This document shows, piece after piece, positions 1,498-61,834 of a stretch of DNA of 64,000 nt. Where the stretch lies: assembly GCA_041658785.1 (NCBI GenBank), contig JBAZZL010000002.1, positions 1,714 through 65,713 on the forward strand, in the 5' to 3' direction. A model generated the notes under the pieces. It saw only the letters and a program-made list of their open reading frames with translations, ran no database searches and was not told where the DNA came from. Position 1 is the stretch's first letter, and each line of letters opens with the position of its first letter. The stretch comes from Patescibacteria group bacterium (GTDB lineage Bacteria; Patescibacteriota; Patescibacteriia; Magasanikbacterales; UBA922). Both the position numbers and the translations under genes were made by a program.

Positions 1498-3929
1498 CAA
1501 AACACGCTAATAATAAAAAACCTCTGCTGGCATGGATGGCAATGATTTTTTTTGTGTTTGCGATTATTTTCTTGCCAATGGCAACAAACGCGCAAACCAG
1601 CCAAGACAGTCCATGCGACAATGTAGATACCGGCGTAAGCAGCGTCTGGCAAGTTCTCGGCACTACCGCTGGAACCCGCTCCGAAGGACTGGAAAACAGA
1701 AATCCGGCAAACGCGTCAGACGAAATACTAGGCATAATCTGCCAGCCGCAACCAAGGATCAAATTACCGGGCCTGACATTCAGCAGTCCGCAAGATGTGG
1801 CAAATACCGCGGTGCGAGAGCCAGACGGTTCGGTCTATGTCTATATCCCCTTTTTGGGCGAATATCTGGCCGCGGTGTACAAATGGGCAGTAGGCGCCGC
1901 CGGCATCATCGCGGTCCTCATGATCATCGTTTCCGGCATTCAATATATGCTGCCAGGCAATGTCATCACCAATGTGCTGACAAAATTAGGCGGAGAGCGC
2001 CAGGAAGAGTCGGTCAACAAAGCAAAAAAAAGAATAGCCGGCGCGATCATCGGGCTCATCCTCGCTGTGGGATCATACGTTATCTTGTGGACAATCAACC
2101 CTGAGCTGGTGCAGTTCAAAAATTTGAAAGTGCAGTATATCAGACCTGAAGGAGGCCGTCCCACCACCCTCAATGTCGCCTGCGCTTTTCCTCTCGCCTC
2201 GGGCAGTCTTGATACAACCGGCGCCGCGGATGAATATAACCAAATGGGAATTAACTACAACTTTGGTGAAGTACGAACTGACACAAATGACCTTTGTTCT
2301 TCTACAAATAACAGATGTCACACCGGAATAGACATCCATACCCAGCCGCCCGGGCAAGTGGTAGCGGTAGCAGAGGGCACTGTTATTTCAATTAGCGAAA
2401 GAATGTCAAAATGCGATAAAGGCTGGGGAGTGGTAACAAACTCTCCAAACTCTCAAGACAATGACAATGGCAAATACAGAGGTGTCGGCGTTTTAATTTT
2501 CCACCCTTCGCTAAACAAGATCATTAATTATGGCGAATTGGACAAATCATCTGTAACTCTTGATGTGGGAAATACTGTCCAACCTGGCGCGCTTCTAGGC
2601 ATAGCCAGCTATTGCGGTATGCTGCATCTGGAAGTTTATGATGGTAGTAATTATGGTCAAGCAGGCGGTTTTGACACAGGATTCGGATACTTTGGAACAG
2701 GTAATGTCACCTTGAACTGGTGTCCGCGAGAAGAAATTAATATAACTAATGCAGAAGAAAAATGTAAAAGCTACCTGGTAGCAGGCCGAGGTCCAAATGG
2801 CCTGATAGATTCAACCGACTTGGTGCGCCAGCTAGAAAGCGGCTCTTGCGCGGGTGGAGCAAACACCGTGCCTGTTGGCGCCTTGGCCACCTGCGACAGC
2901 ACAGCTGGAACCACCATTGCCAGCGATTCAACTCCTGAATCATCAATAGAATCTGTAAAAAATCGTTGGGAAAACGCCGCCAACGAAAAAAATTTAATAG
3001 GAAATACCTTAATTACCAAATTTGGCTCAAACGGTCAGGCGGACGGATTGTATAGAAAAGATGTTGGCAGAATCACAATAATTTATGTGCCTTGCAGTGT
3101 CAACTGGAATAATCCGGTTGAATTAATTTATTATTTCCATGGCAACAACGGTTTTGACAGCCAATTAAATATTAATCAAAGAGTAATTCCTCAACTCAAA
3201 ACCATGCAGGACGCGAGAAGAAATTTCATTTTTGTCTTCCCTGAATTGCCATGGTCAGCAGACAAGGATGGCAGTACAACAAGAAACTATCTTCCTGGAC
3301 CTGGCGATGCAGGCGATAGAGGTGAAACTGTCGATGGCGTCCAATATCCATCTCGAGGCAGTATGTCAGACTTTGCAATGGACAATTTTCAAGCAGATGT
3401 CGTGTTATGGATCAATACTCAATTTCCAAATATTCCAAAAAACTTTGTCATTTCCATGAGCGGCCACAGTCGTGGAGGCAATGCCTTGAATAAAATTGCC
3501 GACAAATTGGATAACATTGATTCTCTCGGCGCAATTAGATCCATAACTTTTTCTGACGCTGATTATGGAAATCCAGAATTAAATCCAAGTAGAATAAGTT
3601 ACGCGATGAATATCTATAATCAATATGTAAGAGTAAACCACGGAACAGAATTAAATCTGCTGGTTGAAGATCCGAGCCTTCCCACAGCCCATTTACCAAC
3701 CCAAAATGCGATAAGTCTGGTTAACTTGCTTACTACCCCTCCTTTTGACACTCCTTGGGAATGGATAGATGGCGGCGATGAAACAGCATCGGCAGGCACG
3801 CCAGGAGCACTTCCTGACGTTCCATACTATGTTCAAGGACATAATAATAATATTATATATCTACCACTTAATAAGAATCACGAGGGAGTTGGAAACATGT
3901 CCATAGCTTGGCCAACACCAATGCCTTGA
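1473..3929 (+). CDS. large secreted multidomain protein: M23 (LytM-type) metallopeptidase domain plus C-terminal alpha/beta-hydrolase (esterase-like) domain
   Basis: Signal peptide ends ...ATNAQ. Two hydrophobic helices flank a charged loop at about aa 120-200. HTGIDIH (HxxxD) and HLEVY (HxH) motifs mark the M23 domain. GHSRGG nucleophile elbow and FHGNNGF mark the hydrolase. Confidence 0.6.
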   Translation: MENFTPIMTKHANNKKPLLAWMAMIFFVFAIIFLPMATNAQTSQDSPCDNVDTGVSSVWQVLGTTAGTRSEGLENRNPANASDEILGIICQPQPRIKLPGLTFSSPQDVANTAVREPDGSVYVYIPFLGEYLAAVYKWAVGAAGIIAVLMIIVSGIQYMLPGNVITNVLTKLGGERQEESVNKAKKRIAGAIIGLILAVGSYVILWTINPELVQFKNLKVQYIRPEGGRPTTLNVACAFPLASGSLDTTGAADEYNQMGINYNFGEVRTDTNDLCSSTNNRCHTGIDIHTQPPGQVVAVAEGTVISISERMSKCDKGWGVVTNSPNSQDNDNGKYRGVGVLIFHPSLNKIINYGELDKSSVTLDVGNTVQPGALLGIASYCGMLHLEVYDGSNYGQAGGFDTGFGYFGTGNVTLNWCPREEINITNAEEKCKSYLVAGRGPNGLIDSTDLVRQLESGSCAGGANTVPVGALATCDSTAGTTIASDSTPESSIESVKNRWENAANEKNLIGNTLITKFGSNGQADGLYRKDVGRITIIYVPCSVNWNNPVELIYYFHGNNGFDSQLNINQRVIPQLKTMQDARRNFIFVFPELPWSADKDGSTTRNYLPGPGDAGDRGETVDGVQYPSRGSMSDFAMDNFQADVVLWINTQFPNIPKNFVISMSGHSRGGNALNKIADKLDNIDSLGAIRSITFSDADYGNPELNPSRISYAMNIYNQYVRVNHGTELNLLVEDPSLPTAHLPTQNAISLVNLLTTPPFDTPWEWIDGGDETASAGTPGALPDVPYYVQGHNNNIIYLPLNKNHEGVGNMSIAWPTPMP

Positions 3930-5399: not shown

Positions 5400-5474
5400 T
5401 CTGCGACCGCCCGACAACTCATCCTCTGTCTGGCAGTTAATCCGAGCGATGGTGCTCCAACTTTCTCTGGCGGT

Positions 5475-5680
5475 AGTCCGACAACTCTATCCCTGTCCCT
5501 TTCCCTTATGAAGGGAAAGGGAACCCATTAAGCGGGTTCAATTAAAATTCAATCGTTAGGTCATTTTCCTTTAGAAGAGAAAGCGCGGTTAACGATTGAA
5601 TTAAGGATAAACTTTCTTAACGAGTCCTCCTTCCCTTCATAAGGGAAGGAGACAGAGGATGAGTTGTCGGATTACCGCCA
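5475..5680. repeat. ~205-bp foldback (MITE-like) element, copy 1, with nested inverted repeats; extra terminal-repeat copy at 5411-5432
   Basis: Near-identical to 34400-34604. Terminal inverted repeats CCGACAACTC..GGGA / TCCC..GAGTTGTCGG. Internal palindromes TTCCCTTATGAAGGGAA and ATTCAATCGTTA/TAACGATTGAAT. Confidence 0.6.
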
Positions 5681-5867
5681 GCCCTGGGAAACAGAGAGAT
5701 TGTCGAGCCACCACCCACCCCCTGTTTGCACCGCCCAATGAAGGTATTTATAAATTCATCTCTTATGGTACTGCCCGCGACACCTCATCCCCTGCCCTTC
5801 TCCTAAAAGGAGAAGGGAGACGAAACAAACTCCTCCTTCTCCTAAAGCAGAAAATACCACAAAATAT

Positions 5868-12943: not shown

Positions 12944-13059
12944 AATAATCCAAATGCAAGAAATTTTATTGGAATCTACGAATATCCGAATGAGTTAAAT
13001 TTACACTATTCGGATATTCGTAGATTCGGATGTCATCCGTATATTAGGATTACATTTAT

Positions 13060-14430
13060 ATGGCCACTCCAGCCGCAATCCAATCTGACAATCTCCCCGT
13101 CGTCGCCCTCGTCGGCCGGGTTAATGTCGGCAAATCAACTTTATTCAATCGCTTAATTGAAGAAAAAAAAGCGATTGTTTCCAACATCCCCGGAACTACG
13201 CGCACCAGTAATGAAGGTGCGGCTCTTTGGCGCGGCAAAGAACTAAAAATAATTGACACGGGCGGACTAGCCTTTACCGACAATGTCCCGCTGGAAGATG
13301 AAATTATTAAACAGACAGAAATCGCCATTAAACATGCTGATATCATCGTAATGGTTACGGATGTTGAATATGGTATTTTGCCGCAAGAAAAAGAGTTGGC
13401 CAAAAAATTAAAAATGTCAGGCAAACCAATTGTCTTGGTAGCTAATAAAGTTGACAGCCAAAACAAAGAAATGGAGATTGAACATAGTGTCTGGAGCCGG
13501 CTCAACCTCGGCCACCCCTTTTTAATTTCAGCCGCCAATGGCAGAAATATCGGCGACCTGCTTGATTTACTATTCAAAAAATGCGGCCAGATTAAAAAAA
13601 GGCCGAAACAATTTAAGGAAAAAAAAGAACCAATTATCAAAATCAGCATCATTGGCAAGCCAAATGTTGGCAAATCCTCGCTCTTCAACAAGCTGATTGG
13701 CGAAGAAAAAGCAATTGTCAATGCCCTGCCGCATACCACGCGTGAATCCCACAATACTCTGGTTAAATACGAAAATCAGCTGATTGATTTTATTGATACT
13801 GCCGGTATTAGAAGAAAAACCAAAGTGGAGGGCGGTTTGGAGTGGGAGGGTATTGGCAAAAGTCTGAACTCAATAGAAGAATCAGACCTGGCGCTTTTTG
13901 TGATTGATGGCAATGAAACCATCTCCAGCCAAGATATGCAGCTGGGCGGGCTTTTAGAAAAAAAATCAAAAAGTGTTATAATTTTAGTAAATAAATGGGA
14001 TCTGTCCGACGACAACAGCGAAAAAAATCAAAAAGAAGTGAAAAAAAAAGCGCTGGTTTATTTCCCCCATCTGAAATTCTCGCCCATCATGCTCGTCAGC
14101 GGCAAAACCGGCCTAAACACCCACAAAATCTTCCCGCTCATTATGACCGTATGGCAAGCGCGGCAGACGACAATTACTGATCGCGATCTGGAAACATTTT
14201 TGAAAAATTGCGTCAGAAATAAACAACCCAGCCGAGGCAAAGGCACCCGCCACCCGGAACTCATGGGTCTGCGGCAAATCAATACCGCCCCGCCCATTTT
14301 TGAACTCTTCATCAAGCCAAAAACATCGGTGCACAGTTCGTATGTCAGCTATCTGGAAAACAAATTAAGAGAACGATTTGACTTTTTGGGTACGCCGATT
14401 GTGATTAAGCTGACGAAGATGAAGAAATAA
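13060..14430 (+). CDS. der: ribosome-biogenesis GTPase Der (EngA)
   Basis: Two tandem GTPase domains (GRVNVGKST; GKPNVGKSS). KH-like C-terminus. Confidence 0.9.
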   Translation: MATPAAIQSDNLPVVALVGRVNVGKSTLFNRLIEEKKAIVSNIPGTTRTSNEGAALWRGKELKIIDTGGLAFTDNVPLEDEIIKQTEIAIKHADIIVMVTDVEYGILPQEKELAKKLKMSGKPIVLVANKVDSQNKEMEIEHSVWSRLNLGHPFLISAANGRNIGDLLDLLFKKCGQIKKRPKQFKEKKEPIIKISIIGKPNVGKSSLFNKLIGEEKAIVNALPHTTRESHNTLVKYENQLIDFIDTAGIRRKTKVEGGLEWEGIGKSLNSIEESDLALFVIDGNETISSQDMQLGGLLEKKSKSVIILVNKWDLSDDNSEKNQKEVKKKALVYFPHLKFSPIMLVSGKTGLNTHKIFPLIMTVWQARQTTITDRDLETFLKNCVRNKQPSRGKGTRHPELMGLRQINTAPPIFELFIKPKTSVHSSYVSYLENKLRERFDFLGTPIVIKLTKMKK

Positions 14431-14433
14431 ATA

Positions 14434-14945
14434 GATACGAAATACGAAAGAATACGAAATTACGAAAATAAACTTTACGAAGAATATTATATTTTATGCC
14501 ACAAGGAGGTAAACAATATATATTGAGAAAAAACGACTTACTTTATCCGGAACTTAGTTTCCGTATTAACGGAGTATTATTTGAAGTGTATAGACAAATG
14601 GGTGGCGGACATCATGAAAAATATTATCAAAAAGCCGTTGTTCTTGGATTATTGAAAGAAAAAATTAAATTCAGAGAACAAGTCTATGTGCCGTTAAAGT
14701 TTAATGATAAAATTGTGGGAAAATATTTTTTAGACTTTTTAATTGAAGATAAAATTATTTTAGAGTTAAAAAGAGGCAAGATGATACCAATACTCAATTT
14801 AAAACAGACAAAACAATACTTATCCACATTAAATTTAAAATTAGGAATTGTTGCCAGCTTTACGCAAGAAGGGGTCGTGATAAAAAGAATAATAAATGAA
14901 TACTAACTGTCTTTCGTAATTTCGTATTCTTTCGTATTTCGTATC
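14434..14945. mobile_element. GxxExxY-gene cassette bounded by perfect 34-bp inverted repeats
   Basis: Left GATACGAAATACGAAAGAATACGAAATTACGAAA (14434-14467) is the exact reverse complement of 14911-14945. A third solo copy lies at 36732-36766. Confidence 0.45.
14496..14906 (+). CDS. GxxExxY family protein
   Basis: GVLFEVY (GxxExxY) motif. 136 aa. Family is commonly found as an inserted accessory gene. Confidence 0.6.
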   Translation: MPQGGKQYILRKNDLLYPELSFRINGVLFEVYRQMGGGHHEKYYQKAVVLGLLKEKIKFREQVYVPLKFNDKIVGKYFLDFLIEDKIILELKRGKMIPILNLKQTKQYLSTLNLKLGIVASFTQEGVVIKRIINEY

Positions 14946-14948
14946 ATT

Positions 14949-15497
14949 ATGAAAATAATCATCGGCCTCGGCAATCCGGGAAAAGATTATCAGAAGACGC
15001 GCCACAACGCCGGGTTTATGGTTGTTGACGCTCTGTGTGAAAAATTTAAAGAATACGGCGTTTCCGACTGGTCGCTCTCCAAAAAATTCAACGCCGAAGT
15101 CTCTGAAGTAAAAATAAAAGACGAAAATATCCTGCTCGTGAAACCCATGACTTTTATGAATCGTTCCGGCGAAACCGCCCATCTCATCATGCGCTTTTAC
15201 AAACTGCCTCCCAAAGATCTGATAATTATTCACGATGACAAGGACTTGAAGCTCGGCGAAATAAAAATCCAGACCGACCGCGGCGACGCCGGACACAATG
15301 GCGTGAAATCAGTCATTGAACACCTCGGGACAAAAGATTTTACCAGAGTCCGCGTGGGGATCGCGAGCGAAGAGGAAAAAAAGATGAGTGATACTTCAAA
15401 ATTCGTTTTAGGAAAATTTGGAATCAGAGAGAAAAAACGATTCAATGAGGCGGCAAGGCGGACGGTTGAAGAAATTAAAAAGGTGATAAAAAATTAA
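14949..15497 (+). CDS. pth: peptidyl-tRNA hydrolase
   Basis: MKIIIGLGNPG..Y..TRHNAGF signature. Confidence 0.9.
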   Translation: MKIIIGLGNPGKDYQKTRHNAGFMVVDALCEKFKEYGVSDWSLSKKFNAEVSEVKIKDENILLVKPMTFMNRSGETAHLIMRFYKLPPKDLIIIHDDKDLKLGEIKIQTDRGDAGHNGVKSVIEHLGTKDFTRVRVGIASEEEKKMSDTSKFVLGKFGIREKKRFNEAARRTVEEIKKVIKN

Positions 15498-15610
15498 ACG
15501 AAATTATACGGAATTATACAAAATTGGACAAAATTTTTTTTAATTTATTTTAATTCTGTTCAATTCTTTATAATTTCGTTTAATTTTGTATAATTCCCTA
15601 CAACCTCCTA

Positions 15611-30703: not shown

Positions 30704-30870
30704 ATCTTATCAATTCACCTAATTCATCTAATTGTCTAATTCACCTAATAAAAATTCCAATTTCCAATTTAAAAAATATTAACGTAGAGCAACTGGAATG
30801 TTTGGCATTATCTTATTTGAAATTTTATTAGGTGGATTAGGTGAATTAGACAATTAGGTGAATTTTCAGA
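30697..30870. repeat. ~40-bp inverted repeat arms (TTAGGTGAATTAG family) flanking a heptamer-containing core
   Basis: Arms aattcacctaattcatctaattgtctaattcacctaat / attaggtggattaggtgaattagacaattaggtgaatt. Related copy at 8285-8325. Confidence 0.5.
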
Positions 30871-30871
30871 C

Positions 30872-34275: not shown

Positions 34276-34304
34276 AAATAGCACGAATCAAAATCATGTA
34301 TCAA

Positions 34305-34340
34305 TCGCCGCCCTTTATCATTCAGGGCGGTTTTTTATTT
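34305..34340 (+). terminator. rho-independent terminator
   Basis: GCCGCCCTTTATCATTCAGGGCGG followed by TTTTTTATTTT. Confidence 0.6.
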
Positions 34341-34399
34341 TCACCTCCCCAGCCCCGCCGCGTTGTTGCGGTCTGGTTGCTCCCCTCTTCGGTGGTAAT

Positions 34400-34604
34400 C
34401 CGACAACTCTATCCCTGTCCCTTTCCCTTATGAAGGGAAAGGGAACCCATTAAGCGGGTTCAACTAAAATTCAATCATTAGGTCATTTCCCTTTAGAAGA
34501 GAAAGCGCGGCCTAACGATTGAATTAAGAACAAACCCTCTTAACGAGTCCTCCTTCCCTTCATAAGGGAAGGAGACAGAGGATGAGTTGTCGGGCTACCG
34601 CCAG
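34400..34604. repeat. ~205-bp foldback (MITE-like) element, copy 2
   Basis: About 93% identical by eye to 5475-5680. Confidence 0.6.
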
Positions 34605-34702
34605 AGAAAGGCAGAGGATAGATTATTGGGCTACCGCGAAGAAAATTTAAACCGCATTCGTTCAGTTTTCAACCTATCAACACCCCATCCCCCTTATCCA
34701 CA

Positions 34703-35758: not shown

Positions 35759-36028
35759 TTATTTGTATAACTGGCTGTGCGTTCCGATTTCCACAAATTC
35801 CACCCATTCAATTTCCCCGCCTTCAAGTTCGCGATACAATGCCCGCCAATTCGCTGTAACATCTATACTTCTGAATCCCTCCCATTTTCCTTTAAGCGCG
35901 TGATTGCGAAGCGAACGATTAAATTGATCATGACGAAAAATCTCCACACTCCTTTCTAAAGCAAACTGTATCTTCTCCGGGGCTTTATAGAAATGTTTCA
36001 AAAATATTTTTGAATAAGTTATTTTCAT
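35759..36028 (-). CDS. YafQ/RelE-family type II toxin
   Basis: 89 aa. H..LKGKW.G.R..D motif pattern of YafQ/RelE. Confidence 0.65.
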   Translation of the reverse strand: MKITYSKIFLKHFYKAPEKIQFALERSVEIFRHDQFNRSLRNHALKGKWEGFRSIDVTANWRALYRELEGGEIEWVEFVEIGTHSQLYK

Positions 36029-36330
36029 ACCTTAACTTTTCCGGTCCTCACATCTTCCAAAAACTTAACCGCCTTATCCGAATCTTCAAATGTGTAATAA
36101 TCGCCGCGTTTCCTTGCTTCATCCGCTTCTTTTAGCGAAGCAACTAAATAATCGCTTGGCTCAAGTTCCTCCTCGTCCACGGCGCTAAAATAAACGCTTT
36201 TTGTGTTTAAAAAATGATGCAGATAAGCATTCAACAAACTGCTCAAACTCAACCCGATTTGTTCGGCGAGTTTCGCGGCTTTTTCTTTCACCTCCGGTTT
36301 GGTTTTGAAATTAATTTGGGCTGAACGCAT
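36025..36330 (-). CDS. DinJ/RelB-family antitoxin
   Basis: Start reassigned to MRSAQINF. INFKT.PEVKE.A..LA...G.SLS. ribbon-helix-helix antitoxin signature. 4-bp overlap with the toxin. Confidence 0.6.
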   Translation of the reverse strand: MRSAQINFKTKPEVKEKAAKLAEQIGLSLSSLLNAYLHHFLNTKSVYFSAVDEEELEPSDYLVASLKEADEARKRGDYYTFEDSDKAVKFLEDVRTGKVKV

Positions 36331-36764
36331 ATTATTATATAAAAAGTATAGAATAAGTGTATATTTACTATACACTTTATCTATAATTTTGTCAAGAGAC
36401 CGCTGGTTCAATCCACGCCATACTTATCATCCGCTTTTTGAAGCGTGATCATCCTTTTACCGGAACGCAAAATCAAGCGCGCCATTTTCACTCGCTTCTT
36501 TAATTCTTTGCTTCGCGATGCGCATTGATCTTCCAAAATTTCTTCAAATTCTTTTTTTAAAAAATCGGCTTGCCTCTTATCCATAAAGCATTCGCGTTTA
36601 GTTCTTTATTTTTATGTGGATTAGCGAATTGAGCCCGGCCGGGCGAAATTCGCGCCGGAGCACCGCCAGCGCGAAATTCGTCTGCGGACTCATTTCGCTA
36701 CTCCATCGGATCTGCCGCGGATTTTTTATTTTTCGTAATTTCGTACTCTTTCGTATTTCGTATC

Positions 36765-38057
36765 CTACGGCCTCACCCGATTAATCATCCGCGGAAACGG
36801 AATCGTCTCCCGAATATGATGAATGCCGGAAATCCAGCGGGTGAGCCGCTCAATGCCCAGGCCAAAGCCGCAGTGCGGTACCGAGCCGTACCGCCGCAAA
36901 TCAAGATACCAGTCAAATTGTTCCAGATTCAGCCCCGCTTTTTGAATGGAGGACTTAAGAATTTCAAAGTTATCTTCACGCTCCGAACCGCCGATAATTT
37001 CGCCAAAGCCGCGCGGCGCCAGCACGTCCGCGTTGCAGACTAAATCAGGGTTATCGGGATGCGTTTTCATGTAAAACGGTTTGATGTTTTTCGGCCAATT
37101 TTTCACGATCACCGCCGCGTCCGAATCTTGCGTCAACAAAACCTCATCATCCGCCCCCAAATCATCGCCATATTTAATATCCGAACCGCGTTTTTGGAGT
37201 TCAGTAATCGCCGCGCCGTATTCGTAATGAATAAAAGGACTGGCTGCCGTCGCTTTCAGCTCATCCGTGTTTCTTTCCAAAATCGCCAGCTCCTCCCTCC
37301 CCCGTTCCAGCGCGTACTGAACCAGATGTTTAACGCCCGCTTCTTGTATTTTCAAACTTTCTTCGTGATGAATGTACGCAATCTCCGGATTCAGAGTCCA
37401 AAATTCCGTCAGATGCTTGCGCGTTTTGGATTTTTCCGCGCGGAAATTCGGGCACAAATCATAAACTTTGCCAAACGCCAAACACATCGCTTCCAGATAA
37501 AGCTGGCCGTTTTGGGTTAAATATACGGTATTGCCAAAATAATCAACCGGAAACAAATCGCTTGTCCCTTCGCAAGAATTGGGAGTAAAAGTGGGAGTAT
37601 CCAGTTCAATATATCCGTTAGAATTAAAATAATCCTGCAAACCGGTTTTTACCAAATGTCTTATTCTTAAAACCGCCCACTGCTTTTTGCTGCGCAGCCA
37701 CAAGTGGCGATTATCCAGCAAAAACTCCGGTCCGTGTTCTTTGTGAGCAATCGGATATTCTTCGGCAATCTGAACAATTTTTATGTTCAAAACCTGCAGT
37801 TCAAACTCACGCTCTTTTTTGGGATGTTTAGACACTTTTCCCGTAACAATCAAAGACGACTCCTGCGTCAATTTTCCCGCGCTTTCCCAAACCGCTGGTT
37901 CTACTTCGTTTTTGGAAACAACGGCCTGAAGAAAACCCGATCCATCGCGCAATTCCAAAAAAACAATTGATCCAGAAGACCGCTTGTTGTACAGCCAGCC
38001 TTTTATTTCCACGCTTTTATCAATAAATCCGGAAATGTCTTTGATTAGAATATGCAT
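36765..38057 (-). CDS. asnS: asparagine--tRNA ligase (class IIb; AsnRS, or archaeal-type AspRS as alternative)
   Basis: 430 aa. N-terminal OB fold. FRAEKSKTRKHLTEFW motif 2. GLGIERL motif 3. Confidence 0.7.
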   Translation of the reverse strand: MHILIKDISGFIDKSVEIKGWLYNKRSSGSIVFLELRDGSGFLQAVVSKNEVEPAVWESAGKLTQESSLIVTGKVSKHPKKEREFELQVLNIKIVQIAEEYPIAHKEHGPEFLLDNRHLWLRSKKQWAVLRIRHLVKTGLQDYFNSNGYIELDTPTFTPNSCEGTSDLFPVDYFGNTVYLTQNGQLYLEAMCLAFGKVYDLCPNFRAEKSKTRKHLTEFWTLNPEIAYIHHEESLKIQEAGVKHLVQYALERGREELAILERNTDELKATAASPFIHYEYGAAITELQKRGSDIKYGDDLGADDEVLLTQDSDAAVIVKNWPKNIKPFYMKTHPDNPDLVCNADVLAPRGFGEIIGGSEREDNFEILKSSIQKAGLNLEQFDWYLDLRRYGSVPHCGFGLGIERLTRWISGIHHIRETIPFPRMINRVRP

Positions 38058-38070
38058 AAATTTGATTAAA

Positions 38071-38158
38071 GAAACTAGAAATTAAAAACTGGAAACTGGA
38101 AACTGGCTGTAAAACAATAATTTCCAGTTTCTAATTTCTAGTTTCTAGTTTCCTGATT
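38071..38158. repeat. palindromic array of heptamer repeats (GAAACTG/GAAATTA vs TTTCCAG/TTTCTAA)
   Basis: gaaactagaaattaaaaactggaaactggaaactgg ... tttccagtttctaatttctagtttctagtttcc. Confidence 0.6.
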
Positions 38159-38165
38159 TCCCAAG

Positions 38166-50404: not shown

Positions 50405-50459
50405 ATAAGCATAATAAGCAATAAGCAGAGTAAGCAGTAAGTATCCGTGCTTACTTTGC

Positions 50460-50879
50460 TTATTGCTTACTCTGCTTACTCTGCTCCAAATATGATTGCA
50501 GAATCACCATCGCCGCTTTCTCATCTCTACTCACCGTTCCTCCCATCGCATCCGCCTGCCTCGAAGTAAACCTCTCGTCAACGAATTCAATTGGTAAGTC
50601 AATTCGTTTTTTTAATTCTTTCACGAACGCTTGAACAATTTTTGTGTTCTCATTCTCTTTTCCATCCAAACCAATCGGCAACCCCACGACAATTTTATCT
50701 ATCTTTTCTTTGGCAATCAAATCTGAAATCTGTCCCGCCAAAACGGGATCCCGCTCGCTGCGGGAAATTCTGAAATCTGAAATCAAAAATTGGCCAAATG
50801 GCAAAACAACCCCAAGGCCAGTCTCCACCCAAGCCAATCCAATATTTTTTCTGCCGTAATCAATGCCGAGTATATTCAT
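50460..50879 (-). CDS. ruvX: YqgF/RuvX-family Holliday-junction resolvase-like nuclease, with in-frame GGGATCCCG element
   Basis: MNILGIDYGRKNIGLA N-terminus. Insert at 50741-50768 encodes RSERDPV. Confidence 0.85.
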   Translation of the reverse strand: MNILGIDYGRKNIGLAWVETGLGVVLPFGQFLISDFRISRSERDPVLAGQISDLIAKEKIDKIVVGLPIGLDGKENENTKIVQAFVKELKKRIDLPIEFVDERFTSRQADAMGGTVSRDEKAAMVILQSYLEQSKQSKQ

Positions 50880-56471: not shown

Positions 56472-56486
56472 ACAAATATTATAATC

Positions 56487-56600
56487 CTAATATTATTATC
56501 CTAATCTGCAAATTTCCGAATACCGCGAATATCTTAATAATTTTTTATTTCATTTGTTATTATTAGGATATTCGCAGATTCGGATGGAATTCGTTGTATT
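56487..56600. repeat. imperfect long palindrome (CGAATATCCGAAT family) in rplF-rpsH spacer
   Basis: Shares ATTCGGATATTCG motifs with the 12974-13025 palindrome. Confidence 0.4.
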
Positions 56601-56609
56601 CGGATTATA

Positions 56610-56999: not shown

Positions 57000-57015
57000 A
57001 ATATTTTACACTTAA

Positions 57016-57212
57016 TCACTTTAACACTTTAGCACTTTAACACTTTAGCACTTGAGCACTTTAACACTTTAGCACTTGAGCACTTTAACACTTTAGCACT
57101 TGAGCACTTTAACACTTTAGCACTTTAGCACTTGAGCACTTTAACGCTGAGGCACTTTTCCAATTTACTTGGGAATAAATCGTGCTAAAGTGCTTCAGTG
57201 CTAAAGTGCTTA
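57016..57212. repeat. 24-nt tandem array (CACTTTAA-CACTTTAG-CACTTGAG, ~5.5 units) with inverted tail, between rpsZ and rpsH
   Basis: Direct units 57016-57150. Inverted copies 57182-57212 can pair back onto the array. Confidence 0.7.
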
Positions 57213-57219
57213 GGCGATT

Positions 57220-57971: not shown

Positions 57972-57974
57972 ATT

Positions 57975-58045
57975 AATCTAGTTCATGGTTCTCAGCCAAT
58001 AGCTATTAGTTATTTTGCAAAATTTTATTGGCTACAAATTATTGG
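57975..58045. repeat. imperfect palindrome of TAGTTCAnGGTTCnCAGCCAATAG family
   Basis: Related to 61752-61828. Confidence 0.4.
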
Positions 58046-58066
58046 CTTTGAACTGCCGGCTTAATC

Positions 58067-58387: not shown

Positions 58388-58488
58388 AATTTGTTGATTC
58401 GAATCAGCTGATATACTCCCTTGCTCTATTTAATTTCAATTTTGAATTTTATCCATACATTATTATTCTATTAAGATTCAGCTAAAAA

Positions 58489-58538
58489 ACCAATTTCCAA
58501 TTTCCAATTTCTAATTTCTAATTTCTAATTTCCAATTA
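58489..58538. repeat. heptamer tandem array (TTCCAAT/TTCTAAT)n in rplN-rplX spacer
   Basis: ccaatttccaatttccaatttctaatttctaatttctaatttccaatt. Confidence 0.65.
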
Positions 58539-61245: not shown

Positions 61246-61366
61246 TTTCCAATTTCCAATTTCCAGTTTCTAATTTCCAATTTCCAATTTCCAGTTTCTA
61301 ATTTCCAGTTTCTAATTTCCAGTTTCTAATTTCCAGTTTCTAATTTCCAATTTCAATTTAATTAAC
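61246..61366. repeat. heptamer tandem array (~17 units of TTCCAAT/TTCCAGT/TTCTAAT) in rpsS-rplV spacer
   Basis: Longest array of the family in the window. Confidence 0.7.
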
Positions 61367-61407
61367 TCAATATCAATTCATTATAATAAATATTTTATGA
61401 CTGCGTA

Positions 61408-61749: not shown

Positions 61750-61751
61750 AT

Positions 61752-61828
61752 TTACTAGTTCATAGTTCAGAGCCAGTAGCCAATAGTTTTGAACCCCATT
61801 ATTGGCTATGAACTATTGGCTCTGAACT
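61752..61828. repeat. imperfect ~75-bp palindrome (TAGTTCATAGTTCAGAGCCAATAG family) in rplB-rpsS spacer
   Basis: Both halves are reverse complements with few mismatches. Confidence 0.4.
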
Positions 61829-61834
61829 AATAAT

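Follow-up and report, generated by a model that had tools for sequence, protein, structure and literature searches.

The 23S rRNA gene of Coxiella burnetii contains an intervening sequence (IVS) of 428-444 nt, the inverted repeats of which form a 28-bp stem that is cut by RNase III, and tandem GACAGAT heptamers precede an open reading frame (ORF) in the loop that encodes S23p (PF05635; PMC4990558). For IVSs it has been stated that "functionality and origin remain unclear" (PMC4990558). Non-intron insertions in the rRNA genes of bacteria of the candidate phyla radiation (CPR) have ORFs of the 23S_rRNA_IVP (IVP) and GIY-YIG kinds; those that are short and have no ORF are regarded as IVSs that RNase III cleaves (Tsurumaki et al., 2024; PMC11270868). 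The element considered here occupies positions 14434-14945 of a 64,000-nt stretch of the genome of a Patescibacteria group bacterium (the window, in what follows), where it lies between the protein-coding genes der and pth and encloses a gene of the GxxExxY family (PF13366), a family described as being of unknown function and subject to multiple horizontal transfers (PMC3424549). By the names attached to homologs, the host is a CPR bacterium near Candidatus Magasanikbacteria. The element is probably a horizontally acquired, selfish hairpin cassette of the rRNA-IVS kind that was inserted exactly where der stops and pth starts. It is likely to be a homing-like nuclease cassette, and the mechanism that we infer for it is set out below.

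The left (5′) arm of the cassette is the 34-mer GATACGAAATACGAAAGAATACGAAATTACGAAA at 14434-14467 on the forward strand, and the right (3′) arm is its exact reverse complement at 14912-14945 (34 of 34 positions complementary); 444 nt separate the two arms and the whole cassette measures 512 bp. Perfect 34-bp inverted repeats had already been recognised in the initial annotation of this DNA, which set the start of the right arm at 14911 in place of 14912. Chance matches to the arm at three or fewer mismatches were absent from 100 dinucleotide shuffles. Four TACGAAA units lie in the left arm, at 14436, 14443, 14453 and 14461 (spacings of 7, 10 and 8 nt), and a fifth, degenerate unit, TACGAAG at 14476-14482, is found unpaired in the inner 5′ spacer (14468-14495). 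The enclosed gene (14496-14906, forward strand) is intact and encodes 136 aa. Upstream is der, for the EngA GTPase (ORF coordinates 13060-14430, forward strand; Pfam MMR_HSR1 twice and KH_dom-like), and downstream is pth, for peptidyl-tRNA hydrolase (14949-15497, forward strand; Pfam Pept_tRNA_hydro), and these matches bear out the earlier placement of a GxxExxY gene between the two. A gap of 3 nt separates the left arm from the stop codon of der, and one of equal length separates the right arm from the ATG of pth; the entire der-pth intergenic spacer is thus made up of the cassette. The inverted repeats at the termini produce a long stem around the cassette, as in an IVS, and this 34-bp long-range stem is retained in both the minimum free energy and the centroid structures of the folded RNA (z -4.4). 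A scan of the cassette for promoter, terminator and Shine-Dalgarno sequences detected nothing convincing inside it or at the arms. Base composition is foreign to the host window: the ORF has a G+C content (GC) of 28.7%, the lowest among the 65 ORFs of the window (mean 43.2%, standard deviation 4.5), and a GC at third codon positions (GC3) of 24.8%, against 43-44% and 48-52%, respectively, in the flanking der and pth. A search of the window against Rfam returned three tRNAs only and no rRNA, and no family covered the hairpins. An integron cassette would have a single attC site on its 3′ side and an integrase gene and attI site nearby; here the ORF has an arm on either side, the cassette is flanked by der and pth, and no integrase gene adjoins it.

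The encoded protein matches PF13366 (PDDEXK_3) with an E-value of 3.5e-24 and 85.9 bits (cut-off 22), and TIGR04256 (GxxExxY) with an E-value of 1.3e-24 and 86.8 bits (cut-off 35). It contains the motifs G38-H-H-E41-K-Y-Y44, D80 and E90-x-K92, of which D80, E90 and K92 are invariant in 39 aligned sequences and E41, within the GxxExxY motif, is nearly so. The ATG start is backed by the conserved N-terminus of homologs, MxQGGKQY, although one public gene call (P0001) starts at a TTG at 14523. The predicted structure (pLDDT 87.8) has an aabbbabb PD-(D/E)XK core, and its neighbours in the PDB by Foldseek are Cas4, lambda exonuclease, MGME1, tRNA-splicing endonuclease and Hjc; a PDB sequence search with the protein gave no match. 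Since these best neighbours are all generic PD-(D/E)XK matches with TM scores of about 0.5, the predicted fold points to a nuclease but not to a particular substrate. Judging from sequence divergence, the gene is under purifying selection: non-synonymous divergence (pN) is 0.09-0.22 with synonymous sites saturated, and dN/dS is about 0.14 where computable, a value obtained for few pairs owing to synonymous saturation in most. PADLOC yielded no defence-family match. The family is large, with 12,314 representative clusters at 50% identity in a profile search of GxxExxY/PF13366. Some members (P0263, P0271, P0292 and others) are proteins of 262-277 aa with two tandem GxxExxY domains, which could be fused or mis-joined neighbouring cassettes.

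Association with flanking inverted repeats extends across this family. Comparison material amounted overall to about 200 loci other than the window, and the family sample to 80 loci with genes for GxxExxY relatives at 29-65% identity, drawn from Patescibacteria, Bacteroidota, Planctomycetota, Omnitrophota, Cloacimonadota, a Pacearchaeota archaeon and further sources. Bracketing was scored by aligning the upstream flank of a gene with the reverse complement of its downstream flank, with a threshold of at least 32. This score was reached by 70% of 74 GxxExxY genes and by 6% of 367 neighbouring real ORFs (Mann-Whitney p 2e-32), and none of the 362 shifted pseudo-genes used as a control scored above 31. 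Many of the bracketed neighbours were themselves further GxxExxY paralogs, eight were IVP genes (PF05635), which encode bAvd-like four-helix-bundle proteins, and one was a GIY-YIG gene; the remaining bracketed neighbours that were checked are ordinary host genes, some of them immediately adjoining a cassette. These three kinds of cargo, with the eight IVP genes and the one GIY-YIG gene, are what an unbiased screen for repeat-bracketed ORFs recovered. At one locus (L027, 2094-4435) three cassettes, two with an IVP gene and one with a GxxExxY gene, alternate with ORFs of the host, and each of the three has arms of its own. Within the window, where ORFs of at least 80 aa were compared as a greedy non-overlapping set, the GxxExxY ORF alone is bracketed (score 68) and all others score below 30. 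The GIY-YIG gene is a 96-aa ORF (L042, 5476-5818) within a perfect 23/23 inverted repeat in a different arm style, the arms themselves being palindromic (GTCATTCTGGCTTGGCCAGAATC).

Among the alternatives raised in the initial annotation was that the inverted repeats are simply paired terminators found around many unrelated genes. In keeping with paired intrinsic terminators or attenuators that share their sequence by chance, the 3′ arm is T-rich and hairpins of this type stand downstream of stop codons. The terminator scan, however, found nothing at the arms, the stems are AT-rich and 30-40 bp long without the combination of a G+C-rich stem and a T run, and bracketing is concentrated on GxxExxY, IVP and GIY-YIG genes rather than spread over neighbouring ORFs. 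Hairpins of the same arm family also lie inside rRNA genes and, in one case, between the ribosomal protein genes rpsS and rplV, which in itself disfavours a terminator role. This explanation is therefore highly improbable.

The arms are conserved in a manner that is specific to their cargo. On the sense strand the 5′ arms are 42% A and consist of units that follow the pattern yAC[GA][AG]A[AT], for example ACGAAT, ACAAAT, ACAGAT and ACGGAT, with a period of 7-10 nt; in the 5′ arms the ACRRAW motif occurs 104 times in the forward and three times in the reverse orientation. At least two ACRRAW motifs are present in 29 of 50 GxxExxY arms and in none of seven IVP arms. Mean identity is 92% between the two arms of one locus and 58% between arms of different loci, and similarity of arms tracks that of the proteins (Spearman rho 0.43, Mantel p 0.0005). 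In L003 a homolog lies between two epimerase genes: its protein is 74% identical to that of the window and its arms are 94% identical, with no homology in the flanks and synonymous divergence (pS) at 0.80, which is saturated. The proteins of L037 and L039, two sites in the same metagenome-assembled genome, are 98% identical, and the two loci become homologous at the outer edge of the left arm. These two comparisons argue that the arms serve as the unit's ends and are conserved as sequence, not only for pairing. Arms and gene make up a single unit that is found again at unrelated sites, its arm sequence and orientation conserved beyond the needs of pairing alone. Mismatches between arms comprise 28 G.U and 32 A.C combinations and, as G.U shows no excess over A.C, selection for pairing in the sense RNA is not in evidence. 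The initial annotation proposed a mobile or recombining minimal cassette, and this proposal gains support from the recurrence of arm and gene at non-homologous sites, from the foreign GC and from absence of the cassette at der-pth in relatives (described below). It had also called for a search for other GxxExxY genes with the same repeats; there are none further in the window, and the L003 homolog is such a gene elsewhere.

Most cassettes lie between -5 and +25 nt from the stop codon of an upstream co-directional gene and from the next start codon. Direct repeats at the ends of 30 cassettes examined for target-site duplications were 0-2 nt long, the same as in shuffled pairings. These data bear on the possibility of a classical terminal inverted repeat transposon, in which the GxxExxY protein would be the transposase and gene-less hairpins would be non-autonomous derivatives resembling miniature inverted-repeat transposable elements (MITEs). 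Certain transposition systems do employ PD-(D/E)XK enzymes, as Tn7 does with TnsA. The terminal inverted repeats, built from repeated subterminal units in a conserved inward orientation, fit such a transposon, as does the large excess of gene-less over gene-bearing copies among the arm matches listed (see below). Apart from the missing target-site duplications, however, the 136-aa protein is a single-domain nuclease, PD-(D/E)XK being the only match, without a DDE, HUH or recombinase domain for strand transfer, and cassettes of the same architecture carry a four-helix-bundle protein in its place. A classical transposon is accordingly judged improbable.

Presence and absence of the cassette were compared at four loci representing three distinct relatives (L094, L215 and L216/L217), in all of which the order LytR-der-pth-dprA is kept. 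None of the loci L094, L215, L216 and L217 has the cassette at der-pth, whereas the window, L001 and L002 do, so that it is sporadic between conserved genes, as are homing genes, and is not universally present at this site, which the initial annotation had named as an alternative. In the closest relative, L094 (Der 80% identical), the der-pth spacer holds a 118-nt hairpin of ACGGAT/CCGGAT units; in L216/L217 (Der 67%) it is 26 nt long and contains nothing, and in L215 (Der 65%) it is filled by a 125-nt hairpin. The LytR-der spacer consists of a 116-nt hairpin in the window, 5 nt in L094 and an 88-nt one-sided array in L216/L217, and lies outside the sequence covered for L215. Between pth and dprA there is a 113-nt hairpin in the window, an IVP gene in its own inverted repeat in L094, and a hairpin in both L216/L217 and L215. 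As the three relatives differ from the window at each junction, these junctions have been colonised repeatedly and independently. The IVP gene of L094 (3706-4183) encodes 108 aa and is bracketed by TTTTAGTTTTCAGTAATCAGTTTTCAGTAT and its complement; the T-rich arm is on the 5′ side, an orientation opposite to that of the GxxExxY cassettes.

The TACGAAA arms belong to a large dispersed family, which is found mostly as gene-less hairpins and solo arrays at gene junctions and in 16S and 23S rRNA genes. A metagenome scan with the pattern TACGAA-N3-5-TACGAAATTACGAA, common to the arms of the window, L003 and L013, gave matches in at least 120 contigs. The 125 arm matches listed include 57 gene-less hairpins, 11 weak hairpins, 52 solo arrays and three arms that enclose a GxxExxY gene. 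In the gene-less hairpins among them the distance to the partner arm is below 150 nt and it is always the A-rich arm that is 5′, and solo arms directly past stop codons are common among these matches. The 23S genes of L175 and L176 contain TACGAAA-family hairpins, as does the 16S gene of L155 and apparently also that of L131 and that of L143, and the L176 copy in 23S is nearly identical to the L155 copy in 16S over about 105 nt. In these rRNA genes the insertion is a composite hairpin, with an outer GC-rich stem around an inner TACGAAA hairpin (L176, 7915-8050, 23S; L155, 7835-7975, 16S; L175, 6135-6275, 23S); two group I introns are additionally present in the L175 23S gene, and the L155 16S gene extends over 2.5 kb.

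The abundance of gene-less copies raises the alternative that the hairpin serves the host at the junction, in processing, stability or insulation between cistrons, and that the gene is an incidental guest; the arms would then not be part of a mobile unit and the nuclease would do something unrelated in the cell or in defence. Similarly built hairpins do fill many spacers of the window and the same junctions in relatives, one sits inside a ribosomal-protein operon, most TACGAAA-family arms among the matches listed are gene-less, and the arms are more conserved than the synonymous sites of the gene, which implies a constraint of their own. On the other hand, the hairpins vary between close relatives, as at LytR-der in the window and L094, and their near-identical copies in 16S and 23S genes behave like insertions. 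Where cassettes at unrelated sites are compared, they become homologous from the arm's outer edge inwards, arm type follows cargo type, and the GC of the cassette is foreign; nor is there a wobble-pair signature of RNA selection or a PADLOC match that would suggest defence. A host-serving hairpin is for these reasons considered unlikely, and a selfish cassette remains the preferred interpretation.

Other members of the arm family take less regular forms. At L116 (around 3612-3640) a TACGAAA array apparently lies inside a long ORF and would be translated as IRNTKTTKLRN, in which case a protein gene would have received an arm in frame. L117 (around 1440-1680) has a one-sided array of roughly 25 TACGAA-type units, and at L121 (1430-1560 and 3730-3860) arrays of GTGACA/GTGATA, TACGAAA and TTAGAAA units abut one another in mosaics, which suggests modular shuffling of unit arrays.

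A solo copy of the arm is present in the window itself, at 36731-36764 on the minus strand. The initial annotation had reported this third copy at 36732-36766 as differing by one mismatch and overlapping the 3′ end of asnS; the single mismatch holds (33 of 34), while the arm abuts the stop codon (36765-36767) rather than overlapping the gene, as do many solo arms elsewhere. The gene (36765-38057, minus strand, 430 aa) is a tRNA synthetase gene as named, of the class II D/K/N type by Pfam, an assignment that covers the Asn, Asp and Lys types. The solo arm is followed by a GC-richer unit-array hairpin at about 36600-36700, and neither a second GxxExxY gene nor a pseudogene was detected in the window, including the vicinity of the solo arm. 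Farther downstream of the synthetase gene, immediately past the arm and the GC-rich hairpin, are genes for an antitoxin resembling RelB (36025-36411) and a toxin resembling YafQ (35759-36028), and beside this pair is a 58-aa ORF without a Pfam match (36408-36584; the region as a whole spans 35759-36584).

Long hairpins fill many other spacers of the window, and their arms are quasi-periodic arrays of units of about 7-9 nt. The LytR-der hairpin (12944-13059) consists of CTACGAAT / ATCCGAAT units and the pth-dprA hairpin (15498-15610) of ACGAAA, ACGGAA and ACAAAA units; both are gene-less and fill their spacers. Further hairpins are located at 30704-30871, 38058-38165, 50405-50478, 56472-56609, 57000-57219, 57972-58066 and 61750-61834, and one-sided unit arrays at 58388-58535 and 61281-61407. 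The long, mostly one-sided arrays of about 8-nt units at 57000-57219, 58388-58535 and 61281-61407, which contain CACTTTAR many times as well as TTTCYAAT / TTTCCAGT, lie between minus-strand genes near the ribosomal-protein region, and TTTCCAGTTTCTAATTTC is repeated at 38121, 58500 and 61281. Unlike the unit-array hairpins in kind is a strongly self-complementary element with arms of 75-92 nt, of which two copies, at 5467-5681 and 34386-34607, are 94% identical over 214 nt; the region 34276-34702 has a folding energy of -163 kcal/mol and no Rfam match.

The mechanism proposed for the cassette has three parts, in decreasing order of confidence: recognition of the arms at the DNA level, harmless insertion through pairing of the arms, and homing-like spread. 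Two terminal inverted arrays, each with four TACGAAA units, enclose one small ORF for a predicted PD-(D/E)XK nuclease, and the arms would be recognised sequence-specifically as DNA, like transposon ends made of several binding units. DNA-level recognition is proposed because unit orientation is conserved, because the arms are conserved past synonymous saturation, because the mismatches show no wobble bias and because arm types are cargo-specific. Insertion may be harmless in that the cassette would be co-transcribed with der and pth and its arms would pair in the RNA, bringing the der stop and the pth start together; by analogy with rRNA IVSs, the 34-bp RNA stem could also offer a long duplex to RNase III. 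Finally, the GxxExxY nuclease may promote spread or persistence in a homing-like manner by cutting gene-less hairpins or empty junctions, with repair then copying the gene between the half-sites. The target would be a palindrome without the gene, whose half-sites would be moved apart once the gene had entered at the centre.

Several observations weigh against this proposal. Within the window's own population no movement is seen: each of its four contigs has the cassette, which is identical in the window, L001 and L002 and interrupted in L093 by the contig end inside the left arm, and an empty der-pth allele was not found in this population, every contig with an identical Der having the cassette or ending in an arm. 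The lack of target-site duplications beyond chance leaves classical transposition unsupported. There is no wobble-pair signature in the arms, the RNase III step is drawn only by analogy, and no RNase III gene signature is visible within the 64-kb window. Just three of the 125 arms listed enclose a gene and the IVP cargo is not a nuclease, so the cargo may be a passenger and not the mobility enzyme; the generic matches of the predicted fold, moreover, indicate no substrate. As regards the link to rRNA, none of the 80 GxxExxY loci contains rRNA, in a search with rRNA probes that did detect CPR rRNAs elsewhere, and PDDEXK_3 (PF13366) is not among the ORF families listed for CPR rRNA insertions (PMC11270868).

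A wider generalisation can be offered only tentatively, and with more doubt than belief: GxxExxY proteins might act as the nucleases for homing or mobility in a very large and so far unrecognised class of palindromic hairpins that reside in operon stop/start junctions and rRNA helices across bacteria, in which insertion of the gene at the centre splits the target and protects the carrier allele, the 23S rRNA IVS being the rRNA-resident branch. A literature search found nothing on the genomic setting of GxxExxY genes or linking them to inverted repeats or IVS-like elements, and relative to the searchable literature the family-wide association with hairpins is new, as are the cargo family and the type of location. 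The GxxExxY family would gain a concrete, testable role as selfish nuclease cargo, its members being usually found within inverted arrays of ACRRAW units that are the same objects as some rRNA IVSs and many CPR junction hairpins, and the 30-year-old IVS puzzle would extend from rRNA to ordinary operons. There are practical consequences as well, in that metagenome assemblies are interrupted at these repeats (the L093 contig stops within an arm, those of L037 and L039 within the gene) and gene callers are misled, as in L003, where the public call (6411) starts the downstream epimerase inside the hairpin.

Several known systems share part of this architecture. In MITEs and foldback elements, the latter having arms made of short tandem repeats, short gene-less hairpin copies outnumber gene-bearing ones, as here, although the cassette lacks target-site duplications and a recognisable transposase. 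Repetitive extragenic palindromic (REP) sequences and REP-associated tyrosine transposases (RAYTs), which together constitute the REPIN system, offer another parallel, namely a single gene flanked by an inverted short repeat that is also dispersed as intergenic hairpins. RAYTs are HUH/Y1 transposase-like proteins, however, and not PD-(D/E)XK nucleases, their genes are usually single-copy and vertically inherited, and REPs are not arrays of 7-10-nt units. Free-standing homing endonuclease genes, such as seg and mob of T4, resemble the cassette in that a small nuclease gene of foreign composition lies between conserved genes and is sporadic among close relatives, and the PD-(D/E)XK superfamily includes a homing enzyme, I-Ssp6803I. 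These genes typically lack long inverted unit arrays, and GxxExxY proteins are not known to cleave a particular target. The CPR rRNA insertions are found in hosts of the same radiation (CPR/Patescibacteria) and their cargo overlaps that of the repeat-bracket screen (23S_rRNA_IVP and GIY-YIG), but that survey covers the inside of rRNA genes, and unit-array arms and copies at mRNA junctions are not described there (PMC11270868). The 23S rRNA IVSs with an ORF, from Coxiella burnetii, Leptospira and Brucella (PMC4990558), differ from the cassette in lying in an rRNA helix rather than between the protein-coding genes der and pth, and in encoding the four-helix-bundle S23p (PF05635) rather than a PD-(D/E)XK GxxExxY protein, although IVP cassettes do occur at the neighbouring junctions of relatives. 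Cleavage by RNase III is experimentally known for rRNA IVSs and is suggested only by analogy for the cassette, the arms of which show no RNA-pairing signature. In other respects the correspondence is close, and includes size (428-444 nt against 512 nt), a stem of about 28-34 bp, heptamer units near the ORF (GACAGAT against TACGAAA), the placing of a single small ORF in the loop, and a distribution that is sporadic and marked by horizontal transfer. A further link between the two is provided by the TACGAAA-family hairpins that lie in CPR 16S and 23S genes.

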